Shown here in pieces: positions 6,264-42,877 of a stretch of 51,681 nt of DNA; the stretch's first letter is position 1, and each line of letters opens with the position of its first letter. The DNA is from a virus. Taxonomy: Duplodnaviria > Caudoviricetes. The translations under genes were made by a program, and so were the position numbers. Location of the stretch: positions 1 through 51,681 of IMG/VR virus record IMGVR_UViG_3300013767_000215; one strand, given 5' to 3'. Below the pieces are notes generated by a model, which was not told the origin of the DNA, ran no database searches, and was given only the letters and a program-made list of their open reading frames with translations.

Positions 6264-6277
6264 TTTCCCATGGGAAA
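6264..6277. repeat. Palindrome TTTCCCATGGGAAA, copy 1 of 7 (putative parS-like site)
   Basis: Exact 14-bp palindrome; intergenic. Confidence 0.9.
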
Positions 6278-6287
6278 TGCGGAGAGG

Positions 6288-6746
6288 TCAGCTCGGCGAG
6301 ACCGGCCAGATCACAGTCGCCGGATCGGAGTACTTCTGCGGCAGGTCGCGCAGGGCCTGGCGGTAGATCGCCCATTTCGATTTCAGGCCGGATGCCAGGG
6401 GCGAATCCGGCAGCTGCGTCCAGTCGCAGGCTTCGACCAGGTCATCACGGCGCGCGCGGATCAGCGGCCACGTCCAGATTTGCGGCTTGGGGCCGACGTC
6501 GACGAGCTTGCCGTCGATCAGGGCCACAGTGGCCTGGCGGCCGAGCCAATCGGCCCAGATCTCGCTGGAGATCTCGATCGCGTTGGAGGGGATGGAGCAG
6601 GCAGGATTGGGCTGCAGCTCCGTGGTGGGTTCGCCGCCTTCCTGCGCCGGGGGCACAGTGACTTCCACCTGGCGTGGACCATGGATGTCCTCGCTATAAA
6701 AAGCCAGTAGGCGCCCGTTGCCATCGACTACTGCAAATCGCTTCAT
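6288..6746 (-). CDS. Tail fibre assembly chaperone
   Basis: C-terminal IRARRD.L..CDWTQLPDSPL...W..YRQALRDLPQ motif. Confidence 0.85.
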   Translation of the reverse strand: MKRFAVVDGNGRLLAFYSEDIHGPRQVEVTVPPAQEGGEPTTELQPNPACSIPSNAIEISSEIWADWLGRQATVALIDGKLVDVGPKPQIWTWPLIRARRDDLVEACDWTQLPDSPLASGLKSKWAIYRQALRDLPQKYSDPATVIWPVSPS

Positions 6747-6749
6747 CGA

Positions 6750-7367
6750 TCAGTACCCCAAGGAGATATAGGCGAAGCCATCCTCGTTGTCGCTCGAGGA
6801 GGCCTGCGTGTAGACCTTGCCGGTCGACGCCGTCGTGTTTGCGCGATCCCACTGCGGCCAGCTGTCCTCGAACGTGCTCTCGGCGCTGTTGACCGCCTGC
6901 GGGATCAGGCAGAGACAGGCGTTGGGGAAAGTCACCGGGAAGCTGAACGCCTGGACGCCCTCGCCGAACGGGCCATTGACGTAGGCCCACTGCAGGATGA
7001 AACCGCCCGGAAACTTGTAGTAGCCGTTGCCGGTGAGACTGACGCCGCCGGTGAGCGACGCCGGGGTGACGGCCTTGCTCGAGCTCGTGCCGGCCTGGAC
7101 GTCGGAGTAGCTGGCGAAGGGCACGGCGGCGCTGCTGATCAGCGCCTGGATGGCGTCGCGCAACTGCGTATAGACCGCGCGGTTGGGCGTGATGCCGCCG
7201 GCGATGATGGCGTTGCGGATCTCCTCGACCAGGCCATCCATGTACCAGCCTTCCAGCACTGTGCGGGGCTTGACGCCTGGCACGCCGCTGGTGAAATGGC
7301 CCGCCGCGACCGCGGCAGGCAACGCATCGGGTGCAGCTGAGGCGGTGGCGCCGTCGTAGCGATCCAT
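6750..7367 (-). CDS. Short tail fibre / baseplate-attachment protein
   Basis: N-terminal EEIRNAIIAGGITP...QL..AI anchor; C-terminal NGYYKFPGGFILQW...FPVTFPNAC motif. Confidence 0.8.
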   Translation of the reverse strand: MDRYDGATASAAPDALPAAVAAGHFTSGVPGVKPRTVLEGWYMDGLVEEIRNAIIAGGITPNRAVYTQLRDAIQALISSAAVPFASYSDVQAGTSSSKAVTPASLTGGVSLTGNGYYKFPGGFILQWAYVNGPFGEGVQAFSFPVTFPNACLCLIPQAVNSAESTFEDSWPQWDRANTTASTGKVYTQASSSDNEDGFAYISLGY

Positions 7368-7368
7368 A

Positions 7369-11223: not shown

Positions 11224-11253
11224 GTGCGCAGCCCTCCCGCCGACGAGGTGCCT

Positions 11254-11772
11254 ATGAAGGTTTGGTTTTGTGTGCTGGCCGCGCTGCTATTGCCATTGCA
11301 AGCGCAAGCCGTTGGAGAGCTTTACCGGGTAAAGGCAGATAGAACCATCGGCTGCCTGGGGCCTGCTGCGAAGGATCTCAGCCAGGCCAAAGGCCATCCC
11401 AACGAACCGCTGCCGAAGGACTGCCGTCTATTCAAAGCGGGATTCCAGTTCAGCTTTCAGCAGTTAAGCCCCTATTCCTTTGACAGCGAGGATAGGGTCA
11501 ATCCAGGCCAGATCGAGACCACTGTCTATGCGACGTGGCTCGATGACAAGGTCGAGGGCGGAGCCGAATATGCGACCTTCGATCAGCGCGACGTGGAGGC
11601 GGTTCTGGATGCGACCGGCCAGCCGGTTCGCTCGAGCTGCTCGGCGCCGATCGGCGGCGAATATGACCGCCTCGAGGCCGACAAGGACGGCCGGCTCTAT
11701 CTGAAGCGCTACGAGCTCAAGGCGAAGTGCATCAACGGCCAGATGCGCACCACCAGCCGGCCATTGAACTAA
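11254..11772 (+). CDS. Secreted protein (moron, opposite strand)
   Basis: GAGG RBS; Sec-type signal MKVWFCVLAALLLPLQAQA; four Cys in the mature part. Confidence 0.7.
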   Translation: MKVWFCVLAALLLPLQAQAVGELYRVKADRTIGCLGPAAKDLSQAKGHPNEPLPKDCRLFKAGFQFSFQQLSPYSFDSEDRVNPGQIETTVYATWLDDKVEGGAEYATFDQRDVEAVLDATGQPVRSSCSAPIGGEYDRLEADKDGRLYLKRYELKAKCINGQMRTTSRPLN

Positions 11773-12095
11773 CGTTTCTTCAGGTCAGTCGAGTTGAGTG
11801 CCGCCAATACTGCCCAGAACAGCAGTACGGCACAGAGAAACAGAGAGAGGCTGAGGGGCCAGTTCAGAAGCCCATCAAGAATCTGTTGAATGCCAGCCCA
11901 GGATGTACTCGGACAACTTATCCCGAGGAAATCCAGCGCATAGCGTGTCGGCATCGGGTGCCAAAAGCCGTCACGCAGCCAACGATAGCATTGGTATGCA
12001 AGTACTCCGGGGCCACTGAGGAAGGCCAGGAGAATGACATTTACGACAATAATGGCGAGACCCTGGCCCGACTGCGATGGCGCTTTATCTGCCAT
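11769..12095 (-). CDS. Two-TM membrane protein (moron)
   Basis: Two hydrophobic segments; lower GC than flanks. Confidence 0.65.
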   Translation of the reverse strand: MADKAPSQSGQGLAIIVVNVILLAFLSGPGVLAYQCYRWLRDGFWHPMPTRYALDFLGISCPSTSWAGIQQILDGLLNWPLSLSLFLCAVLLFWAVLAALNSTDLKKR

Positions 12096-12250
12096 AGGAT
12101 CTAATCCCCGATTGGCCGAGGATCTGTTTCGATCTGCACGAAGCCGTCGAGGAGGTCCTCGATGGCGTCGGCTGCTTCGCGCAGCAGTTCAGGGGTATTG
12201 GAGCTCGCAGCGGCCTTACGCAGGCGCTCTACCAGGTCGGGCGAAGGTTC

Positions 12251-12266
12251 GTTTCCCATGGGAAAC
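12251..12266. repeat. Palindrome GTTTCCCATGGGAAAC, copy 2
   Basis: Exact 16-bp palindrome. Confidence 0.9.
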
Positions 12267-12270
12267 ACGG

Positions 12271-12501
12271 TTATCGCGGAATAGGCGACAGCGAGCAGGC
12301 CTCCTTCACTACTTCGAAGGCCCGATCCATTTCGTGCTGGGTATAGCAAACATGTCCGTCATCCGGCTTCGGGATTGTCACGCAGCGACCGTTGGGACAA
12401 CGCCAGAGTTCGACAGTGCTCGTCTCAACCCCATATGAGGCAAGATTGAAACGTTTGATGACGTGCTGTTCGAATTCCGTTCTGGAATAGAGGCGAATCA
12501 T
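12271..12501 (-). CDS. Small HicA-like protein (putative toxin)
   Basis: 76 aa; W.CPNGRCVTIP resembles the HicA beta-sheet; adjacent to a HicB-like gene. Confidence 0.45.
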   Translation of the reverse strand: MIRLYSRTEFEQHVIKRFNLASYGVETSTVELWRCPNGRCVTIPKPDDGHVCYTQHEMDRAFEVVKEACSLSPIPR

Positions 12502-12513
12502 TGGCGGCCGCGA

Positions 12514-12834
12514 TCAGGCGGCAACCAACCAGACTTCCTCCATCTTGTCGGTCTGCTTCCTTGCAGGCACATTGCTGACACTATCCGTTCCAAGTTGCTT
12601 GGCCGGTAAACCGAGCTTCACTTCGACACTGAGGTCGTAATTGGCTTTCATCAGTGCCTGAATGACATTGGGGACGTCCGCCTCGAGCCTTTCATAGTCC
12701 GCGCCAGACATGAAGAAGCCGTCAATATCCGGGCTGGACAAAATCCACTTGCCATCCTTCAAGTCGGCGCGCACGCGCACAATGCCGGACTTGAGGCATG
12801 GAAGCTCGGGCTTTGTACGGAGAAATTGCATCAT
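12514..12834 (-). CDS. HicB/DUF1902-like protein (putative antitoxin)
   Basis: GKWILSSPDIDGFFMSGADYERLEADVPNVIQAL resembles the HicB partial RNase-H fold. Confidence 0.55.
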   Translation of the reverse strand: MMQFLRTKPELPCLKSGIVRVRADLKDGKWILSSPDIDGFFMSGADYERLEADVPNVIQALMKANYDLSVEVKLGLPAKQLGTDSVSNVPARKQTDKMEEVWLVAA

Positions 12835-13169
12835 GGCGGCTTAGGCCCCAATACCTCGAAAATACCGGATTAACCCATGGGGGCTATCGGCCTGGCATTG
12901 GGGGACTTGAGACCGAAAACGCACGCGCAAGTTCATTGCGCAAGCACAACGGCTCGCCGCCACACCCCGGCTAACACTCCCATGACGTAACGTGCGCATT
13001 CCATGCCTCACGTTAAATAGCGGCCCGAAGGGGGGCCGGCTTCATTGGGCGGAGTATAGGCAGTGAACCCGGTTTCGGAAGTCGCCCACCTCAATTTGAC
13101 CGGTCAAAAGTGTGAAATAGTTCACACTTTGACAACATTTGTCGCAAATCCCCCCATTGACACAGGCAG

Positions 13170-14510
13170 TTAGGAAGCCAGCGCCTTGAATCGGGTTGGC
13201 ATGAATGCCGGGTGCGGTGGATTCCCGAATACCACCAGCTGGTCGGCCCGGGCCGGGTCGCGGTAGAGCCGCTGCGCCAGCACCAGGGAGGGCCCCGGCG
13301 CCGGGCTGTCGACCTCGACGATCTCCGGCAGGCCGGCACCGCGGGTGGCCAGATCCTGGGCGACGTCGGCGCGGAGCTGGCGCAGGGCGGTGTAGCTGTC
13401 GTCGTCGCCGGCGTCGCCGGCGGCGGTGATCTCCAGGTCGATCAGGCCGCAGACCTGGTTCCGCACGGCTGCGGCGTCGTCGGCCGAGACGGGCTGGTAG
13501 GCGGCGCTGGCCTGGGCCAGGGCCTGCAGCGTGGCGCGGCGGAACAGGCTGAGGTGGGCCGCCTGGGCGCTGAGCATGGCCATGGGGATGGCGGAGCTGC
13601 CGAGCACGGGCGCCTCGGTGTAGCCGTAGAGGCCGGCCAGGAGGCGCACGGCGCTACGCGGATCCTGGATGGCGGCCAACAGGGCCTGGGCCAGGGCCTG
13701 CACGGCGGCGCCGATGGTGGCGGGGTCGCCGCCGGTGGCGGCCGTATTCAGGGCCGTGGCGGCGGCTGCGACGCTGGCGCGGGCGGCGGCGCCGGCGGCG
13801 ATGAGCGACGCGGTGGTGGCGCCGCTGGAAGCCTGGGGCGAGGTGTTGATGTTCTGGAAGCCGACGCGGCCGCCGCCGAAGTAGCGCCCGAAGGTGCCGC
13901 TGATATTGGTGGGCAGGCTGACCAGCATGCTGAACAGGTTGGTGGCGTCGTTGGCCAGGCCGCTGATCTGCGCGGACCAGCCGCTGACGGTGGCCACCAC
14001 CTGGTGGGCGACGGCGGAGCCGCGCGAGAGCGCGAGCTGCAGCTGGGTGACGTAGCCGCCGAGCGCGGCCTGGAACATGGCGGCGGCCGAGGTTTGGGAT
14101 GCGGCGCCGGTGGCGGCCTGGACCTCCGGGAACTGCCGGTCACCCGCCACTACGAAGGTGAACTGGATCTCGAAGACGCGGCCGCGCTCGCCGGAGCGGA
14201 TGGGCTGCTCGCCGAGCACGCTGACGGTGAGGCGGCCCAGCGAGGGATGGATCAGGATGCCGGGGCCGGGCGTCTCGATCGCCGCGACCATGCGCTCGCG
14301 CTGGGCAATGATGTCGTCGCCCACGAGGAAGCCGGTGATCGACAGCCGGCGGACACTCTTGCCCATGTCCTCGGGCCAGTAGTCCTCACGGTTCGGGTAC
14401 TCGTGCACTGCCTGGCGACGGCCGGAGCGGAAGTCGTCGCCGCGCGTGGCGAACGGCACCCCGCGAAACGAGGCCTGGACTGCCTTGATCTGCTCGAGGT
14501 AGGTGCGCAT
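13170..14510 (-). CDS. Mu gpN-like DNA circularization / tail protein
   Basis: ASFRGVPF, GRR..VHEYP.R....EDMG, PG.L.HP.LG, C-terminal LAQRLYRDPARA...HPAFMP. Confidence 0.9.
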   Translation of the reverse strand: MRTYLEQIKAVQASFRGVPFATRGDDFRSGRRQAVHEYPNREDYWPEDMGKSVRRLSITGFLVGDDIIAQRERMVAAIETPGPGILIHPSLGRLTVSVLGEQPIRSGERGRVFEIQFTFVVAGDRQFPEVQAATGAASQTSAAAMFQAALGGYVTQLQLALSRGSAVAHQVVATVSGWSAQISGLANDATNLFSMLVSLPTNISGTFGRYFGGGRVGFQNINTSPQASSGATTASLIAAGAAARASVAAAATALNTAATGGDPATIGAAVQALAQALLAAIQDPRSAVRLLAGLYGYTEAPVLGSSAIPMAMLSAQAAHLSLFRRATLQALAQASAAYQPVSADDAAAVRNQVCGLIDLEITAAGDAGDDDSYTALRQLRADVAQDLATRGAGLPEIVEVDSPAPGPSLVLAQRLYRDPARADQLVVFGNPPHPAFMPTRFKALAS

Positions 14511-19954: not shown

Positions 19955-19976
19955 GCCGTTTCCCATGGGAAACGGC
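19955..19976. repeat. Palindrome GCCGTTTCCCATGGGAAACGGC, copy 3
   Basis: 22-bp perfect palindrome; intergenic. Confidence 0.9.
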
Positions 19977-26641: not shown

Positions 26642-28762
26642 TCAGGCCAGGCGGCTGGCCAGCGAGCGCCGCGGCTGCTGGGCGCCGGCCGGCGCCTCCC
26701 CGGGTTTCCCATGGGAAACGGGCGGAGGCGCCGGCGGCGGTGCAGCGGTGGGCGCATGGTTATCGGGTGAGGCCGCCGCCTGGGCGTCGACCCTGTTGTT
26801 GCTGTCCCAGGGTTGGGCCCAGGGGAACGGTTTGTCCCAGTTGATGCGGGCCAGGCCCTGCAGGTGCGCCGCGACGTGCGTCAGCACCATCAGGTCCAGC
26901 ACTTCGTTGCGCGCGTGGGCGGCCTTCTTTTCCCAGCGGCCGTCCGCCAGGCGGTGCTCGGCGGCGAGCTGTTCGAAGAACGGGTGTGGCGCTTCCTTGG
27001 CGCGCAGGGCGCGGGGGAAGTGCACGTAGAGTGGGCCCGGCTCGGCCACCTTGAGCTGCGCCGCCAGCGCGTCCTTGAACAGGTTCGGGTTGAAGCTGGC
27101 CAGCGGCACCTGGCCGCGGGCGACTTTGCCGGCCTTGCGTTGGGTGTCCGGGTAGACCACCACCAAGCGTTGCGCGGTGAGCGGCTTGGCGCCCTTCGAT
27201 GGCAGCAGCGACCAGGCCTCGCGTCCGCTGATTTGGCCGTAGAGCCGCAGCTTGCGCTGGCGCTGCCAGCGGATGAAGGCGGCGTAGGCCTGGTCGGTGA
27301 CTCCAGGGATGCCCTGCGAATCGTAGATGGCGCCGTGCGGCCGCATGCGGCGGCCGCTGCCGTCGGCCAGCGGCCAGCTGGCGAGCAGGACCTTCTCGAG
27401 CAGCTGGTCCCAGTCTTCGGGCGAGGTGTCGACCGAGGCCGGCAGCTTGCCGTGCTCGATGACCCAGCTCTCGCTCTTGATGCCCCAGCCGCGCACCAGC
27501 CATTCAAAGTGCGCGGCCTGGATGTCCACTGCGACGGTGATGAAGCGGACGCCGTCCGGCACCATGCCGCGCGTGAGCGAGCCCTCGGCGCGCTCGGCCA
27601 GGGTGTTGGCGTCGACCGTGCCCTCGGTCTTGAGCGTGAGGCGCGGATAGCCCCACTGCTTCGCCATCACCTGGTGGAAGGTCTTGCTCTCCTCCTCGCC
27701 GCCATTCTCCGCGGCGCGCTCGGCCTTGACGCGCGCGCGAGCCAGGGCGCCGATGCCGCCGTCGACGAACAGGCTCATGGCGCCGACGATCCAGAAGCCG
27801 GCGATGCGGCGCGGCAGCAGCTCGCCGGTGACGATGCCGTCCTCGGAGATCTCCTGGCCGAGGCCAACGTAGCGGCCGTAGCGCAGCATCTCGCGCCGGT
27901 AGCTGTCCTCGATCATGCAGCCGGCGCTGGGGCAGACCAGGCGCGTCTCCGCCTGGATCTCCTCGAGCGTGCCGTTCGGCGGGTACCAGAGCGCCATGTG
28001 CCGCGCGGCGATCGGGATGGGGCTCGACCAGGCGCCGCATTGCGGGCAGGGCCAGTACCACATGCGCCGATCGCTGTCCTTGTACCAGGCCAGGATGCCG
28101 GCGTCCCACTTGTCGATGTCCAGGCCGTAGGCCCGGTCCGGGTGGCTGAGGCCGAGGATCTTGCCGTAGCGCCCGAAGTTGGTGACGCGCACGTCGAACT
28201 GCGCTTTCACGTCGCCGAGGGAGGCGAGGTAGGCGTCGATCTCGTCTGCGACGATGCGCTGCGCGGTCTTGCTGATCAGGTTCGCCTGCGTGGCCGAGAG
28301 GAACTCGGCGCGCATGCCGGCGAATTTCTTGAACTTGATGCTGCGCTCTTCCGGGCGCCGGCCGAGTCGGTCGCGCAGCTCCGGGTGCACCTCGATCATC
28401 GGGTTGATCTGCGCCTTGACGTAGGCGTCGCGCAGATCGTCCGTCGGCATGTACCAGAGCAGGTCGCCCGGATCCGTCGCCACCGACTTCAGCAGCCAGT
28501 TCTCGGCGATGCTGGTCTTGCCGCTGCGGCCGGGCCCGACCACCGCCACCGCCTGGTGCTCGAGGGAGGTGAGGCACTCCATCGGCTCGACCAGGTACGG
28601 CGCCAGCTCGTGCTGCCAGAGGCCGGAGTACGCGCCGGCCGGGTTCACCAGCTTGCGCTTGCGCGCGGCGTACTGCGCGACGGTCTCACGAGCCCGCGGC
28701 CGGAGGATCTCCAGCTGCTCGCGCACCACCAGGCGCGCGGATAGGTAGGGCGCCTCGGACAT
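26642..28762 (-). CDS. Terminase large subunit (lambda gpA family)
   Basis: APYL.EPM, GPGRSGKT, ADEIDAY, WPCPQCG, AVDIQ, RNE.LDL motifs. Confidence 0.93.
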   Translation of the reverse strand: MSEAPYLSARLVVREQLEILRPRARETVAQYAARKRKLVNPAGAYSGLWQHELAPYLVEPMECLTSLEHQAVAVVGPGRSGKTSIAENWLLKSVATDPGDLLWYMPTDDLRDAYVKAQINPMIEVHPELRDRLGRRPEERSIKFKKFAGMRAEFLSATQANLISKTAQRIVADEIDAYLASLGDVKAQFDVRVTNFGRYGKILGLSHPDRAYGLDIDKWDAGILAWYKDSDRRMWYWPCPQCGAWSSPIPIAARHMALWYPPNGTLEEIQAETRLVCPSAGCMIEDSYRREMLRYGRYVGLGQEISEDGIVTGELLPRRIAGFWIVGAMSLFVDGGIGALARARVKAERAAENGGEEESKTFHQVMAKQWGYPRLTLKTEGTVDANTLAERAEGSLTRGMVPDGVRFITVAVDIQAAHFEWLVRGWGIKSESWVIEHGKLPASVDTSPEDWDQLLEKVLLASWPLADGSGRRMRPHGAIYDSQGIPGVTDQAYAAFIRWQRQRKLRLYGQISGREAWSLLPSKGAKPLTAQRLVVVYPDTQRKAGKVARGQVPLASFNPNLFKDALAAQLKVAEPGPLYVHFPRALRAKEAPHPFFEQLAAEHRLADGRWEKKAAHARNEVLDLMVLTHVAAHLQGLARINWDKPFPWAQPWDSNNRVDAQAAASPDNHAPTAAPPPAPPPVSHGKPGEAPAGAQQPRRSLASRLA
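26704..26719. repeat. Palindrome GTTTCCCATGGGAAAC, copy 4
   Basis: Exact 16-bp palindrome in the Pro-rich C-terminal tail of terL. Confidence 0.9.
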
Positions 28763-28765
28763 GGT

Positions 28766-29323: not shown

Positions 29324-29379
29324 TTAGTGCGCTACGTCTACGTGTATCGCGTAACGCTTACGTTTTACTCAAAAACTGC

Positions 29380-29432: not shown

Positions 29433-29464
29433 GCCCGAAACGCCGGGGGCGTAACGCGATGGCG

Positions 29465-30172
29465 TCAGCGGCGGGCGGTGGCCAGCGCTCGGGCGAGGGC
29501 GCGCTCGAGTTCGGGTTTGAACTCGCGGCGGATGATGCGCTCGGCGTTGGCGAACCATCCGAGGTGCTGGCGCACGGGGATGGCGTCGCCGAAGCGGACA
29601 AGCAGAACCAGCTGGCCAGTGGCCTCGGGGAGATTCCCTTTCTTGGCGTAGCGGCCGGCGCGGCGCTGGCCGCGCACGATCTTCGGGCGCTGCCAGATGC
29701 CGTTGACCCAGCCGGCCTTGGTCTTGACCTGGCCGATGAAGACGTCGCCGCGCGCCTTGAGGCGCCGCAGCGTGCCGGACGGGATGTTGCCGTAGGCGTT
29801 GAGCTGGATGTGCTTGGGGTTGAGCCACGTCACGCCCTTGCCGATCAGCTTGTGCATGCCGCTGAACTCGAAGGGCTCGAGGTAGGCGGCGGTGATGTCC
29901 TTGACGAAGATGACGACGGTCGGATCGGCCTTCGTCGCAGCTTTGACGCCGATCGCGTTGAGCGTGAAGGGCGTCGGATCCTTCAGCTTGCGCTTCAGCA
30001 GCTCGCGCTGGCCGGGCACGACATGCTTGCGGGCCAGCGCGTTGAGCGCCTGAGCTTTAGCGAACGGCAGCTGGCGGCGCGCGAAGTCCTCGAGCGAGCG
30101 CTGCAGCTGCCGGACGTCGGCGCGGACGGAGATGCTGATCACGTCCACGCCTCCGGAATAAAGCGCCGGCAA
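29465..30172 (-). CDS. Conserved phage late protein (gpZ/tail-completion-like)
   Basis: RQLPFA.AQALN, DPTPFTLNA motifs typical of the basic protein upstream of terS; exact start uncertain. Confidence 0.6.
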   Translation of the reverse strand: MPALYSGGVDVISISVRADVRQLQRSLEDFARRQLPFAKAQALNALARKHVVPGQRELLKRKLKDPTPFTLNAIGVKAATKADPTVVIFVKDITAAYLEPFEFSGMHKLIGKGVTWLNPKHIQLNAYGNIPSGTLRRLKARGDVFIGQVKTKAGWVNGIWQRPKIVRGQRRAGRYAKKGNLPEATGQLVLLVRFGDAIPVRQHLGWFANAERIIRREFKPELERALARALATARR

Positions 30173-30252
30173 GCGGCGCCCCCGGTCGCATGTGCGAGCC
30201 GACGGGGTGAAAACGAAGCGCCGCGTCTGGGGCGCGGCGAAGGCTCAGGGTT

Positions 30253-30381
30253 TCAGTGCACCAGATCGTCGAGCCAGACGCGGTGGTGGAAGCAGCGGTT
30301 TCCCATGGGAAACAGTCGGCGCAGGACGCGGACCACGAGGCCGAGCCCGATCAGGCCGGCGATGATGGCAACGTGGAGCAT
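30253..30381 (-). CDS. Small hydrophobic peptide (42 aa)
   Basis: AGGAGG RBS then MLHVAIIAGLIGLGLVVRVLRR. Confidence 0.5.
   Translation of the reverse strand: MLHVAIIAGLIGLGLVVRVLRRLFPMGNRCFHHRVWLDDLVH
30298..30313. repeat. Palindrome GTTTCCCATGGGAAAC, copy 5
   Basis: Exact 16-bp palindrome. Confidence 0.9.
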
Positions 30382-30397
30382 GCGGCCTCCTGAAACG

Positions 30398-30483
30398 CGG
30401 AAGCCCCGCGCTTGGCGGGGCTTCCGGTCGGGCACCAGACTCGACACTGGGGAAATCTTGGGGGATTTAACAACACATTGCAA
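30398..30483 (-). promoter_or_regulatory. Putative late promoter plus hairpin (pR'/tR'-like)
   Basis: TTGCAA-17-CAAGAT (30483..30455) followed by a 12-bp stem at 30398..30426, directly after the late regulator gene. Confidence 0.5.
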
Positions 30484-30504
30484 GTCCCCCTTGCCGAATG
30501 GGCG

Positions 30505-31038
30505 TCAGCGGCCTTCGCGGCGCGCCTGTTCGCGCTCCGCTTCCTTCTGGGCACGGCGCACATGCTCCAGCACGGCGAGCTGGATGCCGAGGCGGCGGCG
30601 AGCCGCTTGCTGCACGATGCAGATGCGCTGCTGGCTTACGCCGACATGCTGGGCGATCAGACCCTGGGAGTAGCCAAGCGCATTGCCGAGCAGAGTACAG
30701 CGGTAAGAGTTCGGCATGTCGATGATCAGGGCATGGATGGTCTTCGGCCAGGCGCTGAGGTTGCGCTCGTCGGCAAGAATGGCCTGCAAGGTCGGGTTGC
30801 TGACGCCGGCCGATGGCGTGCGCTTGAAGCAGCCCTCGACCGTCTCCTCGAAGGCGGTGCCAAGGTCGAGTCGGGCGCGGCTCTCGCGCGGCGCGAGATA
30901 GAGCGCGAGCCATGCGGCCCACTGCGCCAGGGCCTCGTCGACCAGGCGGTCCTGCGGCGTGGCCTTCGGCCGCGGATTCTTGCGCGGCCGCTCGACGCGC
31001 TGGAACAGCGGTGACCGTGCAGCTTCGCTCATGCCCAT
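30505..31038 (-). CDS. Late regulator (Q-like / sigma region-4-type HTH)
   Basis: L.QWAAW N-terminus; GYSQGLIAQHVGVSQQRI HTH; position before late genes. Confidence 0.6.
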   Translation of the reverse strand: MGMSEAARSPLFQRVERPRKNPRPKATPQDRLVDEALAQWAAWLALYLAPRESRARLDLGTAFEETVEGCFKRTPSAGVSNPTLQAILADERNLSAWPKTIHALIIDMPNSYRCTLLGNALGYSQGLIAQHVGVSQQRICIVQQAARRRLGIQLAVLEHVRRAQKEAEREQARREGR

Positions 31039-31069
31039 CGTTTCATCCTCCCGTCGAGTGCCGTTGTGT

Positions 31070-31245
31070 CCTCTACAACCACCACCACCACAACCACCGG
31101 GATTTATCGCGCGTGTGCGCGCGCACGCGCGCGCGTACGTGTGGGTCCAGGTGGTTGTTATTTCTCAAAATTGGATCGCAAACCCCCGTCGTTGTTGAAT
31201 AACCACTGTGGTGGTGGCCAGTGGTTGCGGGTGGTTGTGGCGCGG
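31070..31245. other. Putative replication origin region
   Basis: CAACCAC/ACCACC repeats in both orientations around a GC-alternating tract and an AT-richer patch, right after the VapE helicase gene. Confidence 0.45.
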
Positions 31246-36262: not shown

Positions 36263-36476
36263 CCACCCTAATCGAGGCCGCCGGGACACCCCGGCGGCCA
36301 ATCCCGCACCCGAAGCAATCAAAGCGGCTCGCGAAGCCGCTGGATTGACGCAGGCTGAGGCCGGCGCTCTCCTGCACTCTGGAGAGCGCTCGTGGCAAGA
36401 CTGGGAGCGCGGCGAACGCCGAATGCATCCGGCGTTCTGGGAGCTATTCCAGATCAAATCCAAGCGCGCGCGTTGA
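36255..36476 (+). CDS. XRE-family HTH protein (73 aa)
   Basis: IKAAREAAGLTQAEAGALL....RSWQDWERGERRMHPA.WELF. Confidence 0.85.
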   Translation: MPNHPNRGRRDTPAANPAPEAIKAAREAAGLTQAEAGALLHSGERSWQDWERGERRMHPAFWELFQIKSKRAR

Positions 36477-37777
36477 CCGACATCCTCAACCTTCCGGGCT
36501 TGGCCGTAGATCCTGCTCGCACCCGCGAGGACGGCACGGCCATCACCATAGGCGTGGCGCGCCGGCCGAAACCGGATTGGTGCTGCAACCACTGCGCGGC
36601 GCCGGACCTGGTGCCGAACGGCAGCCGCACCGTGAGCTATGCCGACCTGCCCGTCAGGGGTAAGCCGGTGACCCTGGAGTGGCAGCGCCAGCGCTACCGC
36701 TGCACCGCCTGCGGGAAGTCCACGCCGGACCGCCATGAGGGGCTGCACGACGATTTCCTCATGACGGAGAGGCTCTATGACTGGATCGGCGCCAGGTGCC
36801 TGAAAACCACCTTTGCGGCGGTCGCAGCGGACGTGGGCCTGGACGAGCGCTCCATCCGCCGAGTGTTCGAGCACTGGGCTGATCTGAAGCTCAAGGGGCG
36901 GCAGGTCGACACGCCGCGCTGGCTGGGCGTGGACGAGGTGCACCTGCTGCACGCCGCCCGGGGCATCCTCTGCGATATCCAGGAGAAGGCCCTGATCGAC
37001 ATGCTGCCCACCCGCAGCCAGACCGCTATGGGCCGGCGCATCATGGCGATGCCAGGTCGGGACCGCGTTGAGGTGGTGGCGATGGACATGTGGGGACCCT
37101 ATCGCCGGATCGCAGACGAGCTGCTGCCGCAGGCCACCGTCGTTGTGGACAAGTGGCACGTCACCAAGTACGCCGACCTCGGCATGGAGACCATCCGCAA
37201 GGCCCACCGCGCCAGCCTGACGCCGCTGATGCGCCGCCGCCTGGTGAAGGACCGCTTCCTGCTGCTGTCCCGAGGCCACCGGCTGAGCCCTGAGCAGCGG
37301 ATGATCATGCAGACTTGGACGAACACCTTCCCCGAGCTGGCCGCCGCCTACGAGGCCAAGGAAGCCTTCTACGCGATCTACGACCAGGCTGACCGCGACA
37401 CCGCCCTGTCGGCCTGCGAAGCCTGGGAGGGCAACCTGACGCCCAACATGCGGCTGGCCTTCGGTCCTCTGCTCAGCGCTCTGCGCAACTGGCGAGACCC
37501 CATCTTCAACTACTTCGACAACCGGGCCACCAACGCCTACACCGAAGCCATGAACGGACTGGTCAAGATCGCCAACCGGGCAGGCAGGGGCTACAGCTTC
37601 GACGTGTTGAGGGCTCGAATGCTGCTGTCCAGGGATGCTGTGAAGTACGCCAGCACCCCGACCGGCACAGCGCCCTACGGCGTCTCTGAAAGCCCCGCCG
37701 GCCAGTACATTCCAACCCTGACTGATCAACTCATTCATGGGCAGTTAGGCTTCGTTCCAACCGGATTTGCCGGATAA
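36473..37777 (+). CDS. ISL3 transposase
   Basis: Zn finger C..C/RYRC..C, LGVDE, AMDMWGPY, VVDKWHV, TNAYTEAMN motifs; TTG start overlaps HTH stop. Confidence 0.92.
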   Translation: MTDILNLPGLAVDPARTREDGTAITIGVARRPKPDWCCNHCAAPDLVPNGSRTVSYADLPVRGKPVTLEWQRQRYRCTACGKSTPDRHEGLHDDFLMTERLYDWIGARCLKTTFAAVAADVGLDERSIRRVFEHWADLKLKGRQVDTPRWLGVDEVHLLHAARGILCDIQEKALIDMLPTRSQTAMGRRIMAMPGRDRVEVVAMDMWGPYRRIADELLPQATVVVDKWHVTKYADLGMETIRKAHRASLTPLMRRRLVKDRFLLLSRGHRLSPEQRMIMQTWTNTFPELAAAYEAKEAFYAIYDQADRDTALSACEAWEGNLTPNMRLAFGPLLSALRNWRDPIFNYFDNRATNAYTEAMNGLVKIANRAGRGYSFDVLRARMLLSRDAVKYASTPTGTAPYGVSESPAGQYIPTLTDQLIHGQLGFVPTGFAG

Positions 37778-37852
37778 CCCTTGATGCCGCCGCAGCCCTC
37801 GGCCAGGTCCAGGATGACGTCTTCGAGGGTTTGCTCCAGCAATCCGAGCTGC

Positions 37853-38128
37853 TCAGTCATGGCGTGTCCCACCTCGTCCCACTTTTTGGTACAGCGTGGT
37901 ACAGCCCTCTTCAGGCATAAAAAAAGGGCCATCCGCCGCTTGGGCGGATGGCGGCAAGGGTCGCTTGAGGCGGCCGGAGGAGACCTGGTGGAACACGAAG
38001 AGCGCGGCGGTGATGGCAAGCCGGAGCAGGGCGCCGACCAATCGCAGCCAGATGGCCATGCCAATCAGAAGGGAGGCGGCCAGGCACGCCAGCACGAAGA
38101 GCGCGTAAAAGACGGCGAGAGGGAACAT
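37853..38128 (-). CDS. Small membrane protein
   Basis: Two hydrophobic segments; abuts cro stop. Confidence 0.45.
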   Translation of the reverse strand: MFPLAVFYALFVLACLAASLLIGMAIWLRLVGALLRLAITAALFVFHQVSSGRLKRPLPPSAQAADGPFFMPEEGCTTLYQKVGRGGTRHD

Positions 38129-38362
38129 TCAGGCGGCCTCCGCTTGGGGTGCCTCACCGAAGATGTCCGGCCGCATTTGGTAGCGGGTTACCTTGCCTTC
38201 GCTGCCCGTTTCGATTCCGAGGCAGCGGTTGGGCGGCACCACCATCCACTGGGAGACCGCCTGGGGAGTGATGGGCGGATCGAACATCCGCCCGACCGCG
38301 GCGGGGCCGCCAGCGCGGGCGATCAGGGCTTGTGTTTCGGCTTTGCGGGCTTCGTCGTCCAT
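38129..38362 (-). CDS. cro: Cro/YdaS-like repressor
   Basis: AGGPAAVGRMF..ITPQAVSQW..VPP.RC..IE....VTRYQMRPDIFG; divergent from cI. Confidence 0.85.
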   Translation of the reverse strand: MDDEARKAETQALIARAGGPAAVGRMFDPPITPQAVSQWMVVPPNRCLGIETGSEGKVTRYQMRPDIFGEAPQAEAA

Positions 38363-38374
38363 AGCAGCCCGAAG

Positions 38375-38439
38375 GGTAAGCGGCGCTTACCAATTGTGTC
38401 AAGCAACGCTTACTTGTCTGATGTAAGAAATACTTACAT
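38375..38439. promoter_or_regulatory. Three operators (GTAAG-N5-CTTAC) and leftward promoter between cro and cI
   Basis: GTAAGCGGCGCTTAC 38376..38390, TCAAGCAACGCTTAC 38399..38413, GTAAGAAATACTTAC 38423..38437; minus-strand TTGACA at 38397..38402. Confidence 0.8.
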
Positions 38440-38449
38440 AGTGGGACCT

Positions 38450-39424
38450 ATGAAATCAGAGCTTTGGCAGCGCATCCGCGAGGTTCGCCGACGAAAGAAT
38501 CTGACCCAGCAGGCCGTGGCGGACTGGTTCGGAATCGACCGGGGTTCGGTCTCGCAATGGGAAAGCGTGAACCCGGATACCCGGACCACGCCGGACGTCG
38601 AGCGCCTCATGGAAATTTCCCGCCGGACAGGCGCGCCGCTGGAATCGTATCTACTCAACGACGAGGCGCCGGTCGACGCAGACTGGGGTCCGGCCGAGCC
38701 GGGCAACGGGATCCGCGTCTTTCACCCAGATGATCCAGCCGAAGACGACGAGATCCGCATTCCCGAATCCCGGATCAAGTTCAGCGGCGGCCACGGTGCC
38801 CTTGCATATGAAACGGTGCTCGACAGCGAGCCCGCAACCTATCGGCTGTCTTGGTTTCAGAAAGAGCGCATCAATCCGACGCGGACCATGCGGTTCCGGG
38901 TGACGGGGGACAGCATGGAGCCGCTGCTATGGCCCAACGACTCCGTGCTGGTGAACCTGGACGAGACGGCAGTACGCGATGGTCAGGTCTACGTGTTCCG
39001 CCAGGATGATGAGCTCAAGGTGAAGATGCTGGTGCGGCGCGAGGACAAAGCCCTGGTCCTGCGCAGCGTCAATCGCGTCCGGTTCCCCGACGAGATCATC
39101 CCCGCGGAGGAGCTGCACGAGCGCATCACCATCATCGGTCGTGTGCGCGACAAGAGCGGCCGCGGCGGCCTTTCGGGCTGGCCTACTGAGCTGCAGGAGC
39201 CGTTCATCGAATATCGCGGGCGACAGGTCCCGGAAGGCGCGACGCAGCGCCGGGCGGACCTGCTGCACGAACTGGACGAAGGCGTGAAGGCGCGTTTCCC
39301 GCATTTCAGCGATGCGCGCCAGGCGGCGGTCATCCTCAAGCTGTATCAATGGTGCCGGAAAAACCCGCATGTCACGGTTGACCAGGCCCTCGAGCTGATC
39401 ACCGGAGTAGGCGAGGAAAGCTGA
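38450..39424 (+). CDS. cI: CI-like repressor (HTH-XRE plus S24 peptidase, with C-terminal extension)
   Basis: RIREVRRRKNLTQQAVADWFGIDRGSVSQWE; VTGDSMEP and LKVKML catalytic motifs. Confidence 0.9.
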   Translation: MKSELWQRIREVRRRKNLTQQAVADWFGIDRGSVSQWESVNPDTRTTPDVERLMEISRRTGAPLESYLLNDEAPVDADWGPAEPGNGIRVFHPDDPAEDDEIRIPESRIKFSGGHGALAYETVLDSEPATYRLSWFQKERINPTRTMRFRVTGDSMEPLLWPNDSVLVNLDETAVRDGQVYVFRQDDELKVKMLVRREDKALVLRSVNRVRFPDEIIPAEELHERITIIGRVRDKSGRGGLSGWPTELQEPFIEYRGRQVPEGATQRRADLLHELDEGVKARFPHFSDARQAAVILKLYQWCRKNPHVTVDQALELITGVGEES

Positions 39425-39448
39425 CAAATTTTGTTGCGAGCTGTGCAC

Positions 39449-39745
39449 ATGAATCTTTTTGAGATGATACTTGCACGTATTGCGCCGCGGCCGAATCCGC
39501 GGGCAGGGGGAGCGCTAGTGCAGGGAGCATCCAGACCCGACTTGTGGGGGTGGCTGGACACTATGATTCAGGAATCCGAAGGGCAGGAAAAAGCCGGCGC
39601 CAAATGTGTCCACGGCGTCAACGAGTTCAATAACCACGGCCAGGTGAACCTGATGATTCTGACCGTAGGCGATCCGGAGCAGGCCATGCGCCTGGTCCGG
39701 GAAATGCTCGACCGCACCGAGCAACCGGCCGCCGGGCCGCGCTAA
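39449..39745 (+). CDS. Hypothetical protein (immunity-region accessory)
   Basis: ORF downstream of cI, coupled to the next gene. Confidence 0.5.
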   Translation: MNLFEMILARIAPRPNPRAGGALVQGASRPDLWGWLDTMIQESEGQEKAGAKCVHGVNEFNNHGQVNLMILTVGDPEQAMRLVREMLDRTEQPAAGPR

Positions 39746-40146
39746 TGCGCGCCTTGCTTGCAGCCGCCGGACTTGCGGTGCTGAGCCTGCCGTCCGCGGC
39801 CGACGGGTACAAGTTCCATCAGCCGGCGGTACTGCGCGGAATTGTCATTTCGGCGGCCGCCACCGATGCGCGAAACAGGGTCATCACCTATCCCGCACTG
39901 CAGCTTCGGGAACCGATCACCGTTGCCGGCGCCGACCCTGTCGGCGTGGCAGAGGACCCTGATACGTTAACTGAACGCAATGTCATGCTGGTGCAGCTGG
40001 CAATCTCGGACAGAGCCGCCTGGAATCAGCGGTTTAGCTTCATGGGGCGCCTCGCGACCGTGACCTGCGATCGGTTGTTCCATGCGGATAACGGGCACCA
40101 CTACACGGTGGTGCTCTGCGACGCCAAGAAAATCTCCGAAGAATGA
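39745..40146 (+). CDS. Secreted DUF4431-like protein
   Basis: Signal peptide; YPAL.L..PI.V...VQL...LFHA.NGHHYT.VL pattern. Confidence 0.65.
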   Translation: MRALLAAAGLAVLSLPSAADGYKFHQPAVLRGIVISAAATDARNRVITYPALQLREPITVAGADPVGVAEDPDTLTERNVMLVQLAISDRAAWNQRFSFMGRLATVTCDRLFHADNGHHYTVVLCDAKKISEE

Positions 40147-40151
40147 GGCTA

Positions 40152-40205
40152 GTAAGCGGCGAGCGTAAGCGACGCTTGACACGAATAGTAAGCACAGCTT
40201 ACGTT
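40152..40205 (+). promoter_or_regulatory. Early promoter with CI-type operators
   Basis: GTAAGCGACGCTTGA 40165..40179 and GTAAGCACAGCTTAC 40188..40202; TTGACA at 40176..40181. Confidence 0.78.
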
Positions 40206-40230
40206 ATGGCCATTCCAAGGGGAATGAGCC

Positions 40231-40611
40231 ATGCAAACCGCTGTTCAGAAACCTGCCTCCGCACCCGACGACCTCGCCACGCAGCTGGCCGCGTCGCTGC
40301 TGCTCCACGAGCGGCTGCGGCAGATCGAGAAAGAGGGCTACACGTCCGAGCACGATGATCACCACATCGGCGGCGAGCTGGCCTTTGCGGCGGCTGCCTA
40401 TGCCTATGCCGGTGGCTGTGAGGACGGCGCCAGGCTGGTGCCTTCCGTTTTTTGGCCCTGGAACCTCGATGACTGGAAAAGCCGCAGCAAGCGCGTCTGC
40501 CTGATCAAGGCCGGCGCGCTGATCCTGGCGGAGCTGGAGCGGCTGGCGCGGCTCGAGGCAGCCCAGGTCATGAGGGCCGTTTCCCATGGGAAACAGGAGG
40601 CCGCCCAGTGA
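40231..40611 (+). CDS. Conserved phage early protein
   Basis: ER.RQI.KEGY..EHDD....ELA.AAA.YA...WPW...WK...L.KAGALILAE.ERL motif. Confidence 0.75.
   Translation: MQTAVQKPASAPDDLATQLAASLLLHERLRQIEKEGYTSEHDDHHIGGELAFAAAAYAYAGGCEDGARLVPSVFWPWNLDDWKSRSKRVCLIKAGALILAELERLARLEAAQVMRAVSHGKQEAAQ
40579..40594. repeat. Palindrome GTTTCCCATGGGAAAC, copy 6
   Basis: Exact 16-bp palindrome immediately before an AGGAGG RBS. Confidence 0.9.
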
Positions 40612-40955
40612 GCGCGGAGCATCCCGCTTCGGCAGGCCTGCGCAAGCTGGCTGACCTGCTCGACCAGGCCGTGGCCGATGGCGCCGGACTTCTCGCCTTC
40701 GATTCCTATGTGGCATTCCACATTCATGGCCATTGGGAAAAGCAGCCGGCTCTGTTGGCCGAGGTGACCGCACGATTCGGCGGCGAAGGTAAAGCCGAAA
40801 AAGGCAGCTGCACCTACGACCATTGCATCGAGGTGGAAGGCCTTCGGGTCCATTTCAGCTTCTGGGCGGACGCGGTCTGCATGACAAAAACCGTCACGCG
40901 CCAGGTGCGCGTCCGCTCCGGCCTCAGGCCGGTCGCCGGAGCCTCCCATGGCTGA
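40608..40955 (+). CDS. Hypothetical protein
   Basis: AGGAGG RBS; GTGA overlap. Confidence 0.6.
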   Translation: MSAEHPASAGLRKLADLLDQAVADGAGLLAFDSYVAFHIHGHWEKQPALLAEVTARFGGEGKAEKGSCTYDHCIEVEGLRVHFSFWADAVCMTKTVTRQVRVRSGLRPVAGASHG

Positions 40956-41304
40956 CGCCGGCCTCGATCCGCTGCAGCTGCGCGTCGAGAAGATGGCGCT
41001 CGACTACATGGCGCAGGCCCTGCGCGACCACGAGCTGCGTCAGCGCCTTGCTCTGAGCTTGCGGGCGATGCGCCGGATCCTGCGCGCACTCGACCGCGTG
41101 AGCTTCGAGCCTGGCGCCCTGCCCGATGTTCAGCCGTCCTTGGTGCTCGGCGCCATTGCCAACATCGTCGACCAGGCCACACCTGCGGCCGCGGGCCTCG
41201 ACGGATTCCACCGCATCCGCTGGCAGCTCAGCCGCCAGTCCCACCGTTCCCGTCGCCGCACGCCGCTCGAGCAGCTGGCCGCCGGCGCGGATCTTCAGGA
41301 GTAA
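40948..41304 (+). CDS. Hypothetical protein
   Basis: GGAG RBS; overlapping operon. Confidence 0.55.
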   Translation: MADAGLDPLQLRVEKMALDYMAQALRDHELRQRLALSLRAMRRILRALDRVSFEPGALPDVQPSLVLGAIANIVDQATPAAAGLDGFHRIRWQLSRQSHRSRRRTPLEQLAAGADLQE

Positions 41305-41308
41305 GTTC

Positions 41309-42877
41309 ATGTCCGCAGACGGAAGCAGCATTGCCGAGGAAGTCCTGGTCGTTGCATTGACCGATATCATCCCTGACCCGCGCCAGCCGCGGCGCACCTT
41401 CGAGCCGGAGGCGCTGAAGGAGCTGGCAGATTCGATCAAGCGAGAGGGACTGTTGCAGCCGATCATCCTGCGCCCGCTGACGGCGCAGGACCAGGTCAAG
41501 GGCACCAAGCAGCTGCCGAAGTTCGTGATCGTCGCCGGCGAGCGGCGCTGGCGCGCTTCCGATCTTGCCGGCAATGCCACGATCCGCGCGCTCGTCCGGC
41601 ATGACCTACAGGCGGTCGACATCGATGTGCTGCAGCTGATCGAGAACCTGCAGCGCGAAGGCCTGCCGCTGGCAGAGGAAGCTGCGGCAGTCGGCCGCCT
41701 GGTGGAACTGGTCACCAAGCAGCTGCAGGACAAGCCGGATCCCGAGGGGCGATCGCCGCTGGAAGTGGTGGCGGCACGCCTTGGCAAGAAGGCGAAGTCC
41801 TGGGTGAGCCTGCGAGCCAACGTCATGAACGTGCCCGACGCCGTGAAGAGACTGGTGGTCGACGGAACCCTGCACGACGTGCAGGTGATCAATGCTCTCG
41901 GCAATCTGCACCAGATCGATCCGGAAGAGGCGCAGGAGCTGATCGAGCGCTACAAAAACCCCTCCCGTTGGGATCCGGCGCCGACTCGTGAGGATGTGAC
42001 GGAGAGTTTGCGCCATGCCAAGCAGCGGGTCGAGGACGAGGCGAAGGACAAGCGCGACAAGGCTGCCGCCAAGAGCGACCCAAAGGCCATCGCCGAGAAG
42101 GAGCGCGAGAAGAAGCAGAAGGCGGCCGACAAGAAGCGCAACGACAGCATCAAGCTGATCAACCAGGCGATCGAGCAGCGAGTCGACGAGCTGACGCCGG
42201 CCTTCAACATCGCCCTCGGCTTCAAGAAGCCTCAGAAATCGACGTATGGCTGGGGCTATGGGATCCCGGTCGAGATCCGCGGACAGAAGTTCAGCAAGTA
42301 CAGTGGCGGCAAGATCCCGGATCAGGTCGACCAAACCAGTTTTGACCTGCATCTGAACAAGGGCGGCACGACCGTCGCCGCCAAGATCATCGAACTACTG
42401 CCGAAGACGATGAAGCACTCCTTCTACATCGAGGAAATGCCCGATGGCATCACGCTCGAGCAGATGCAGAAGCTGCAGGAGATCTTCCCCAAGCTCGAAT
42501 TCCGCACCGATTTCACGCTCGACGGTGCGGCGATGCAGCTGCTGCTCGGCAAGGTGCAGGGCAACGTTTCCCATGGGAAACAGGGCGCCAAGGTAAAACC
42601 GGCCGATAAGCCGGACAAGAACGCCAACAGCCGCGCCGCTGACGGCGACACCGTCACCAGCTTCCTCGAGGCTTGCACCCAGGAGAAGGACGGCGCCCAG
42701 ATCACGGCCGCCGAAATGCGCGCCGCCTACGAGGCGTACTGCAAGCGCCATCACCTGATCCCGCTCTCCGCCAACGACAACCGCTATGGCGCCGGCATCC
42801 TGCCGTGGGTCGAGAAGAAGCGCACCAAGACGGGGTACGTCTACATCGGCCTGCAGCTGCTAGTGGAGGGCGAGTGA
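41309..42877 (+). CDS. ParB/KorB-family protein with C-terminal primase-associated wHTH-like domain
   Basis: PDPRQPRRTF...L.ELADSI...GLLQPI.LRP, IVAGERRWRA, IENLQRE, HTH VAARLGK..SWVS; C-terminal V.SFL..C.....Y..YC...KKRT..G..Y.GL.L. Confidence 0.88.
   Translation: MSADGSSIAEEVLVVALTDIIPDPRQPRRTFEPEALKELADSIKREGLLQPIILRPLTAQDQVKGTKQLPKFVIVAGERRWRASDLAGNATIRALVRHDLQAVDIDVLQLIENLQREGLPLAEEAAAVGRLVELVTKQLQDKPDPEGRSPLEVVAARLGKKAKSWVSLRANVMNVPDAVKRLVVDGTLHDVQVINALGNLHQIDPEEAQELIERYKNPSRWDPAPTREDVTESLRHAKQRVEDEAKDKRDKAAAKSDPKAIAEKEREKKQKAADKKRNDSIKLINQAIEQRVDELTPAFNIALGFKKPQKSTYGWGYGIPVEIRGQKFSKYSGGKIPDQVDQTSFDLHLNKGGTTVAAKIIELLPKTMKHSFYIEEMPDGITLEQMQKLQEIFPKLEFRTDFTLDGAAMQLLLGKVQGNVSHGKQGAKVKPADKPDKNANSRAADGDTVTSFLEACTQEKDGAQITAAEMRAAYEAYCKRHHLIPLSANDNRYGAGILPWVEKKRTKTGYVYIGLQLLVEGE
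42566..42581. repeat. Palindrome GTTTCCCATGGGAAAC, copy 7 (inside parB)
   Basis: Exact 16-bp palindrome in an interdomain linker. Confidence 0.9.

Follow-up and report, generated by a model that had tools for sequence, protein, structure and literature searches.

The DNA analysed here is IMG/VR record IMGVR_UViG_3300013767_000215, a complete provirus record of a tailed phage (Caudoviricetes) that spans 51,681 bp with the host flank absent; we refer to this whole stretch as the window. It contains seven exact copies of a 14-bp palindrome, TTTCCCATGGGAAA, and a gene, parB, that encodes an orphan protein of the ParB/KorB type (P0001). Comparison of the window with related phage sequences indicates that the seven palindromes are probably the cognate docking sites of this partner-less protein, which would act as a clamp resembling KorB or BisD. 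That the palindromes are loading sites for the phage ParB had been proposed in an initial annotation of the window, and five comparative lines now support the proposal: gene sharing, copy number, sites within parB itself, concerted switching of the central hexamer and conservation of position.

An exact search placed the 14-bp cores at 6264, 12252, 19959, 26705, 30299, 40580 and 42567, as the initial annotation had reported, with distances between successive sites of 5988, 7707, 6746, 3594, 10281 and 1987 bp. Six of the seven copies extend to the 16-mer GTTTCCCATGGGAAAC, and the copy at 6264 has T for C on one flank. Allowing up to two mismatches added no further site in the window, so the copies are all-or-none, without degenerate forms. 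No exact match to the 14-mer occurred in 100 dinucleotide-preserving shuffles of the window, and 4.1e-5 copies per window are expected from base composition. A chance origin of the seven copies was rejected on these grounds; the composition-based value is lower than the 2e-4 given earlier. Resemblance to bacterial parS, also pointed out earlier, holds in part: the GTTTC/GAAAC arms are common to both, but the centre of the phage palindrome is two bases longer. Its half-site TTTCCC is presumably nearer to the Noc site, and its core contains CATG and CCATGG. The gene and the sites are arranged as follows (ORF, open reading frame; pLDDT, predicted local distance difference test).

41309..42877, plus strand: parB, encoding the orphan ParB/KorB-type protein P0001 (522 aa).
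Site 1, 6264..6277: TTTCCCATGGGAAA with flanks G...T, in a 36-nt gap between two minus-strand genes, 10 nt past the stop of a tail-fibre-assembly gene (6288-6746, minus strand) and 13 nt ahead of the ATG of an ORF (5505-6251, minus strand).
Site 2, 12252..12265: the 16-mer, 5 nt past the TAA of a small minus-strand ORF in a 57%-GC insert amid baseplate genes.
Site 3, 19959..19972: the 20-bp palindrome CCGTTTCCCATGGGAAACGG, in a 42-nt gap between 19982-20302 (minus strand) and a head-closure gene (19613-19939, minus strand); this gap separates head and connector genes.
Site 4, 26705..26718: C-terminal tail of the TerL gene (26642-28762, minus strand), codons ~682-686 of 706, read as V-S-H-G-K, with the stop 63 nt away and a longer inverted repeat in the flanks.
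Site 5, 30299..30312: within a 42-codon hydrophobic ORF (30253-30381, minus strand), with two hairpins around it, upstream of packaging/structural genes.
Site 6, 40580..40593: final 10 codons of the gene at 40231-40611 (plus strand), read as V-S-H-G-K, with the AGGAGG of the next gene adjoining; the site belongs to the parB operon, and parB begins 716 nt downstream.
Site 7, 42567..42580: inside parB, residues 420-424 (V-S-H-G-K), at the edge of a modelled disordered linker (residues 423-444, pLDDT < 50).

These positions agree with the earlier description of the sites as lying in intergenic gaps, small ORFs or flexible protein tails. The minus-strand arm holds five of the sites and the parB operon the other two, and all three clearly coding sites (40580, 42567 and 26705) are read in the same frame, as V-S-H-G-K. 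Two of the surroundings have features of their own. The insert with site 2 (11224-13170) is lower in GC (57% versus 67%) and has the appearance of a moron cluster: amid the baseplate genes it carries small ORFs, among them 12514-12834 for a DUF1902 (HicB-like) protein. At 30219-30440, two G+C-rich hairpins stand around the 42-codon ORF, the second followed by a T-run and with packaging genes just downstream, and this segment may be a late-operon leader.

Because the sites are palindromic and in the window lie mostly between genes or at gene ends, one with a longer flanking inverted repeat (site 4), they might be supposed to act as nucleic-acid structures without any protein, i.e. as RNA hairpins, terminators, recombination hot spots or remnants of mobile repeats. 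We give this explanation hardly any credence. The 14-mer by itself forms a stem of at most 5 bp, no T-run follows any of the seven sites on either strand, and none of the three sites within the two regions scanned for terminators (29000-31200 and 37700-43000) received a terminator-like call; terminators were rejected on these last two observations. The copies are also exact, without degenerate relatives, their counterparts in other phages are placed in mid-gene, and from one genome to another the central hexamer is exchanged in every copy together (see below).

The first link between the sites and parB comes from gene sharing. Three viral records with full-length relatives of P0001 (27-41% identity; G001, G002 and G003) carry a sister palindrome, TTTCGCCGGCGAAA, 6, 8 and 5 times, respectively, spread over 40-45 kb, and their backbones differ from that of the phage in the window. 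Among the 707 stop-to-stop ORFs of at least 40 aa in the window, only parB, together with its antisense shadow, matches all three records (tblastn E <= 1e-3). TerL and portal have matches in two of the records, and primase and reverse transcriptase in another two; the methyltransferase ORF matches G001 alone and the repressors match none.

Copy number provides the second link. A viral scan for TTTCGCCGGCGAAA returned at least 127 stretches, of which 80 were listed; from the 37 listed contigs of about 21 kb or more we analysed 36, which together with G001-G003 gave 8 records with two or more copies (G001-G003, G009, G013, G014, G017 and G037) and 31 with one. ParB-family or ParB_N genes were found in 7 of the 8 multi-copy records versus 3 of the 31 single-copy records (Fisher p = 5.7e-5, among the matches listed plus G001-G003). 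Co-occurrence of motif and gene in related phages, which the initial annotation had named as a check, was thus borne out for the sister motif. As a control for the method, the same palindrome count recovered canonical parS 3-5 times beside chromosomal parB at four loci. Among 80 viral ParB loci, three or more palindrome copies were found only at three family loci and at two others: L042 (42% GC), where GTTTTGCATGCAAAAC occurs 5 times in 13.8 kb, and L043, where TGCACACGTGTGCA occurs 3 times in 16.6 kb. Each of these two has a different phage ParB-like gene, and they are further phage ParB loci with private palindromes.

The third link is that the DNA word recurs inside parB genes. In P0002, the closest relative (43-49% identity to P0001), VSHGKQ stands at the same alignment position as in P0001, and the surrounding linker differs. 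We surveyed 149 representatives (P0001-4 and P0121-265), 94 of them of at least 400 aa, with P0005 and P0008 counted as controls. Either FAGE (6 cases) or SPAK (12 cases) is present within the first 25 residues in 18 of the 94 family representatives of at least 400 aa versus none of 171 control ParBs. The two peptides are two reading frames of one 14-mer, and in all 12 SPAK cases the preceding residue is L, V, I or F, as the leading TT of the 14-mer demands. In G003 the DNA 14-mer itself lies 25 nt into parB, and the protein reads LSPAK there. The use of two frames and the 14-mer-compatible neighbours show that the DNA word, not the peptide, is conserved. Most TTTCGCCGGCGAAA copies in G001-G003 likewise lie within genes.

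Fourth, the centre of the palindrome switches in concert. All copies in a genome have one central hexamer, which is CCATGG in the window and in G004, a relative described below; GCCGGC arrays are found in phages of 36, 45, 58 and 67% GC, and a GCTAGC pair is found in a 28%-GC phage with a family ParB. The GC-rich 14-mer occurs three times in a 36%-GC genome, where 3.8e-5 copies are expected, so its presence is not compositional. Simultaneous replacement of the hexamer throughout a genome argues for a single trans-acting reader. The recognition helix of the proteins differs as well (WVS[L/E]RAN versus WVSK[H/R]A).

Such a reader could in principle be something other than ParB (a stoperator-type repressor, a late-gene activator or a methyltransferase/restriction system), in which case the association with parB would be hitch-hiking. 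The phage does encode a CI/S24 repressor, a Cro-like protein and a methyltransferase of the D12 adenine class, the palindrome core contains CATG and CCATGG, and one record with three copies, G037, has no ParB match. Nevertheless, none of those proteins is common to G001-G003 together, the repressor has different operators of its own (GTAAGC-N3-GCTTAC), the sister centre GCCGGC has no adenine and a site lies inside parB itself in 18 of 94 lineages. We therefore regard this explanation as improbable. Two specific candidates were rejected: a methyltransferase target, since the methyltransferase is not common to G001-G003 and GCCGGC lacks adenine, and repressor sites, since the CI/Cro switch has its own operator.

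The fifth line is conservation of position. The fragment G004 (24.9 kb) shows synteny with the structural arm of the window, with protein identities of 41-88%. Four structural-arm sites are syntenic in it (three exact, one with one mismatch), in flanks that are 56-75% identical and contain indels; two of the three exact copies are at the same position and the third is in the same insert amid the baseplate genes. Site by site, and including three short metagenome contigs (L532, L563 and L565), site 1 has counterparts at G004 position 1123 and in L563. The counterpart of site 2 (G004 7503) is in the same inter-baseplate insert at a different distance from the neighbouring gene, and site 3 is exact in L532 and has one mismatch in G004. 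The counterpart of site 4 lies in the G004 TerL gene with the stop 60 nt away, and site 6 has a counterpart in L565 with flanks that are 76% identical. A metagenome scan with the 16-mer returned at least 121 loci; among the matches listed, two copies were present only on the source contig of G004, and four were true relatives.

Taken against these five lines, several observations weigh against the palindromes being ParB docking sites or against parts of that reading. G037 (38,658 bp, 45% GC, 100% complete by CheckV) has its three TTTCGCCGGCGAAA copies within 7.3 kb (6821, 8258 and 14079) and no ParB_N or family match, and conversely the three ParB_N-bearing single-copy records, among the matches listed, have the gene with only one site. 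G004, G450 and G452 are multi-copy without ParB, although they are fragments (54, 36 and 79% complete). The variant TTTCGCTAGCGAAA, predicted by back-translation and with GCTAGC at its centre, is multi-copy in three records, of which just one has ParB, and for the predicted variant TTTTGCCGGCAAAA no multi-copy contig was found among 80 listed of at least 118 rows. Covariation of the recognition helix with the site is suggestive only, as the two proteins involved are close relatives and kinship is a confounder. The early, CI-repressed timing of parB proposed below draws solely on operator likeness and an analogy with lambda OL/PL. Finally, the 771-aa ParB of Variovorax phage VarioGold (L633 = OP296522.1) is accompanied by no repeated palindrome of 14 bp or more, which shows that not every phage ParB works through such sites. 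VarioGold is a cultured temperate phage, and its ParB/RepB/Spo0J gene (27984-30299) is in the same place as parB here, in a CI-side operon toward the integrase.

At the protein level, P0001 combines ParB_N (PF02195, 79.1 bits; cut-off 26.3) with a KorB helix-turn-helix (HTH) domain (PF08535, 36.5 bits; cut-off 22.3). Both nucleotide-binding motifs are intact, GERR (in GERRWRA) at 77 and ENLQRE (in IENLQRE) at 112, and G77, R80, R82, N113 and R116 do not vary among 38 family members. Among PDB sequences P0001 matches Spo0J (E 1.3e-19), Noc (about 1e-15) and, most weakly, KorB 8qa8 (E 4.2e-10). An AlphaFold (AF2) model built on the 38 family members (pLDDT 88.8) has a CTPase-type N-domain (1-115), the HTH domain (121-216), two long helices (227-302), an alpha/beta domain (320-416), a disordered linker and a C-terminal domain (448-517). 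Foldseek matches are confined to the first ~230 residues and are to ParB, Noc and KorB: the KorB DNA-binding domain 1r71 (TMt 0.74), Noc 7nfu (0.76-0.78) and ParB 6t1f (0.77), and also 8qa9 and 8qa8. The C-terminal half, ~290 residues, is unrelated to any named protein, with weak Pfam and fold leads only. Those for residues 448-517 (42650-42877) are to Pox_D5 of P4-type primase-helicases (Pfam E 0.018, below the cut-off; Atlas TM 0.40-0.44), and the C-terminus has no likeness to the phage's own primase-helicase. This extension is absent from canonical ParBs and probably delivers the output of the protein.

An exhaustive profile-free search returned 60 cluster representatives (50% identity) at E <= 1e-30, mostly of 450-570 aa, so P0001 is a member of a family and not a singleton. 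A word-based search gave just three closer relatives, the best labelled Nevskia sp., and locus searches with P0001 or P0002 alone gave no matches. The genome-contig scan with alignment A1 was dominated by chromosomal ParBs, and no full-length family member was found among 50,697 deposited GenBank phage records at E <= 1e-15.

We also searched bacterial genomes for the palindrome. The set consisted of 401 genomes of one class around a Steroidobacteraceae metagenome-assembled genome, chosen from the Nevskia label of the closest ParB; these are stand-ins and not the actual host of the phage, which is uncultured, the record having come from a subsurface metagenome. The 14-mer is present in 6 of the 401, in single copy in five and in three copies in G349, and no family ParB was found beside it in the five of these six genomes that were searched (all except G068). 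In G349 the copies are at C4:214-696 (two copies 470 bp apart, at a contig end) and C15:85386, and the sole ParB-like match is on another contig.

If the palindromes are ParB docking sites, the central HTH domain of ParB dimers would recognise the 16-bp palindrome, cytidine triphosphate (CTP) would be bound in the N-domain at GERRWRA and ENLQRE, and the dimer would close as a clamp. Clamps would then slide off the site; with loading sites spaced 2-10 kb apart, the clamps could come to cover all 52 kb of the phage chromosome, with output via the ~290-residue C-terminal extension. The output would most likely be control of phage transcription across the genome, either KorB-like silencing or BisD-like activation; DNA organisation is a possible second role.

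Among known systems, KorB and its OB sites offer the closest parallel in layout. As described in PMC13768133, RK2 has twelve OB sites over ~60 kb whose sequence and position are kept in R751, and PMC11790492 describes KorB as a sliding clamp that depends on CTP and silences distant promoters. Both systems pair a ParB-family CTPase-type protein that has a KorB-type HTH with dispersed palindromes (12 per ~60 kb in RK2 versus 7 per 52 kb in the phage), and in both the sites keep sequence and position in diverged relatives. The OB oligonucleotide core TTTAGCGGCTAAA (PMC11790492, Methods) is related to the phage sequences TTTCGCCGGCGAAA and TTTCCCATGGGAAA. The differences are that the phage replicon is an integrated tailed prophage instead of a plasmid, without an IncC/ParA partner or ParA-binding motif, and that its core is of 14/16 bp with an even centre. 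Furthermore, P0001 has the ~290-residue C-terminal half (long helices, alpha/beta domain and Pox_D5-like lead), and its sequence likeness to KorB (E 4e-10) is weaker than that to chromosomal ParB and Noc. No KorA/TrbA partner turned up in the phage, though no search aimed at one was made.

According to PMC12409273, the orphan ParB-like protein BisD of ICEclc is a CTP clamp that has an additional activator domain and, starting at two bisS sites, spreads across ~50 kb. By description it resembles P0001 as an orphan ParB-like protein on an integrated element, with an extra output domain and parS-like palindromes, CTP binding by P0001 being predicted. However, the two bisS sites of BisD are 23 bp long and 2 kb apart, and BisD depends on BisC, whereas the phage has seven dispersed 16-bp sites and no known partner. 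Chromosomal ParB/parS and Noc with its NBS sites (PMC7383237) are the best sequence and fold matches of the P0001 N-domain and HTH, and share a 16-bp palindrome with GTTTC/GAAAC arms. They differ in that the phage site has two extra central bases, P0001 has no ParA motif and another C-terminal half, and their sites surround oriC or span the chromosome instead of lying on a phage.

A further known arrangement, that of N15, bears on whether the palindromes serve true partition, i.e. whether they are dispersed centromeres through which ParB segregates an excised or plasmid form by means of a host ParA. N15 is a plasmid prophage with SopA and has four separate inverted-repeat (IR) centromere sites, IR1-4, for SopB (PMC7205306); these and the twelve OB sites of RK2 (PMC13768133) confirm the earlier statement that dispersed ParB-family sites occur in N15 and RK2. 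P0001 shares with SopB that it is phage-encoded, of the ParB family and associated with several separate palindromic sites, and these sites are like parS in length and arms. N15, however, is kept as a plasmid with SopA, whereas the present phage integrates: it encodes a tyrosine integrase and is recorded as a provirus. A scan of 70 ORFs (PHROGs; 30 also with Pfam) turned up no gene of the ParA or SopA family. The ParA-binding motif [LIFVM]G[KR]G[LIFVM], as defined in the Fig. 3 legend of 10.1101/2025.10.10.680097, is absent from P0001, and in the first 60 residues it is present in 1 of 94 family representatives versus 93 of 116 chromosomal-type ParBs. The lack of a ParA gene among these ORFs and of a ParA-binding motif, together with the integrase, makes partition quite improbable. 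Of the uses suggested in the initial annotation (coating, silencing or segregation), coating with a regulatory output remains our best guess and segregation is the least likely.

A more serious competitor, though still unlikely, is that ParB binds these same sites with a structural output, compacting, positioning or shielding replicating phage DNA early in the lytic cycle (for recombination, replication, packaging or protection from nucleases). The sites are genome-wide and not at promoters, the copies in G001-G003 are mostly intragenic, and the weak lead in the C-terminal domain is to Pox_D5, a DNA-associated domain of primase-helicases. Canonical ParB bridges and condenses DNA, as in the BsParB control of PMC11790492, but KorB-CTP itself did not condense DNA in vitro in the experiments described there. 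Two sites are also in regulatory-looking places, one in the leader between hairpins before the packaging genes and one in the parB operon. The placement of this operon, which is like that of the lambda-type early-left operon by the analogy mentioned above, fits a structural role as well.

The parB operon itself appears to be under the control of the phage repressor circuit, as suggested by two clusters of operators.

40165..40202, plus strand: two GTAAGC-N3-GCTTAC operators and a TTGACA hexamer, directly upstream of the parB operon (start 40231).
38376..38437, plus strand: three GTAAGC-N3-GCTTAC operators, in the gap between the cro-like gene (38129-38362, minus strand) and the CI/S24 repressor gene.

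With up to two mismatches allowed, the window contains five matches to GTAAGC-N3-GCTTAC, all in these two clusters, and none of 100 shuffles reaches five. Lambda has a comparable arrangement at OR and at OL/PL, which we used as the analogue for the operators at the parB operon. This likeness suggests that the parB operon is a repressor-controlled early operon. Placed behind CI/Cro-type operators, parB would be an early gene that is probably repressed in the lysogen and expressed at induction or infection. A promoter scan found no sigma-70-like match near the sites or the parB operon, a result that is uninformative for a 67%-GC host.

The gene map on which these placements are based combines ORF calls guided by third-position GC (GC3) with PHROGs and Pfam, 70 ORFs having been scanned with PHROGs and 30 of these also with Pfam. 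The minus strand from ~35.4 kb to 0.3 kb encodes a Dam-like methyltransferase (the D12-class enzyme mentioned above), a VapE/DnaB-type primase-helicase, the small and large terminase, portal, protease and capsid, and the same arm continues with connector, sheath, tube, tape measure, baseplate and tail-fibre genes. The remaining landmarks are the following.

36392-37777: ISL3-family transposase (DDE_Tnp_ISL3, 178 bits), between the leftward early arm and the cro-like gene.
38129-38362, minus strand: cro-like gene.
38450-39424, plus strand: CI/S24 repressor gene.
45861-49443: diversity-generating retroelement, with an Avd-like gene (47615-48049) and a reverse transcriptase (48046-49443).
49935-51227: tyrosine integrase.

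Insertion of the ISL3 element may uncouple the lytic arm from its promoter. After the CI/S24 repressor the plus strand continues with two small genes and then the operon starting at 40231 that contains parB, downstream of which are the retroelement and then the integrase. Within the retroelement a 265-nt repeat is present in four copies (46022, 46508, 47331 and 47988; 62-100% identity), suggesting more than one variable repeat or target gene; reverse transcriptase and Avd are also present in the relatives G002 and G003.

ParB clamps that depend on CTP and control distant genes have been described in one plasmid system, KorB, and in one integrative element, BisD. The ParB-fold survey of 10.1101/2025.10.10.680097 lists 872 prophage-encoded ParB homologs and terms such orphans uncharacterised, without function or DNA target. 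We did not find a plasmid-style genome-wide layout of ParB sites described for integrated tailed phages, the searchable literature has neither motif beyond unrelated primers, and a 2026 KorB review does not mention phages. One orphan prophage ParB family gains from the present comparison a candidate protein-site pair, second and third natural specificity variants and a likely place in the regulatory circuit. This makes the role of orphan phage ParBs and the natural reprogramming of ParB-type specificity testable, and the exact, orthogonal 16-bp sites could provide new ParB/parS-type pairs for DNA labelling.

Tentatively, and with more doubt than confidence, we extend this picture to a widespread, undescribed family of ~500-aa orphan ParB/KorB clamps in temperate tailed phages of 28-67% GC. 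Members would be induced through the repressor circuit and would load at 5-8 private palindromes, usually with one in their own gene. They would coat the phage chromosome, and their C-terminal effector might time or gate late genes or shield the DNA. If so, these phages would possess a layer of 'chromatin' of their own, the site specificity of which has been reprogrammed several times, as reflected in the CCATGG, GCCGGC and GCTAGC centres.

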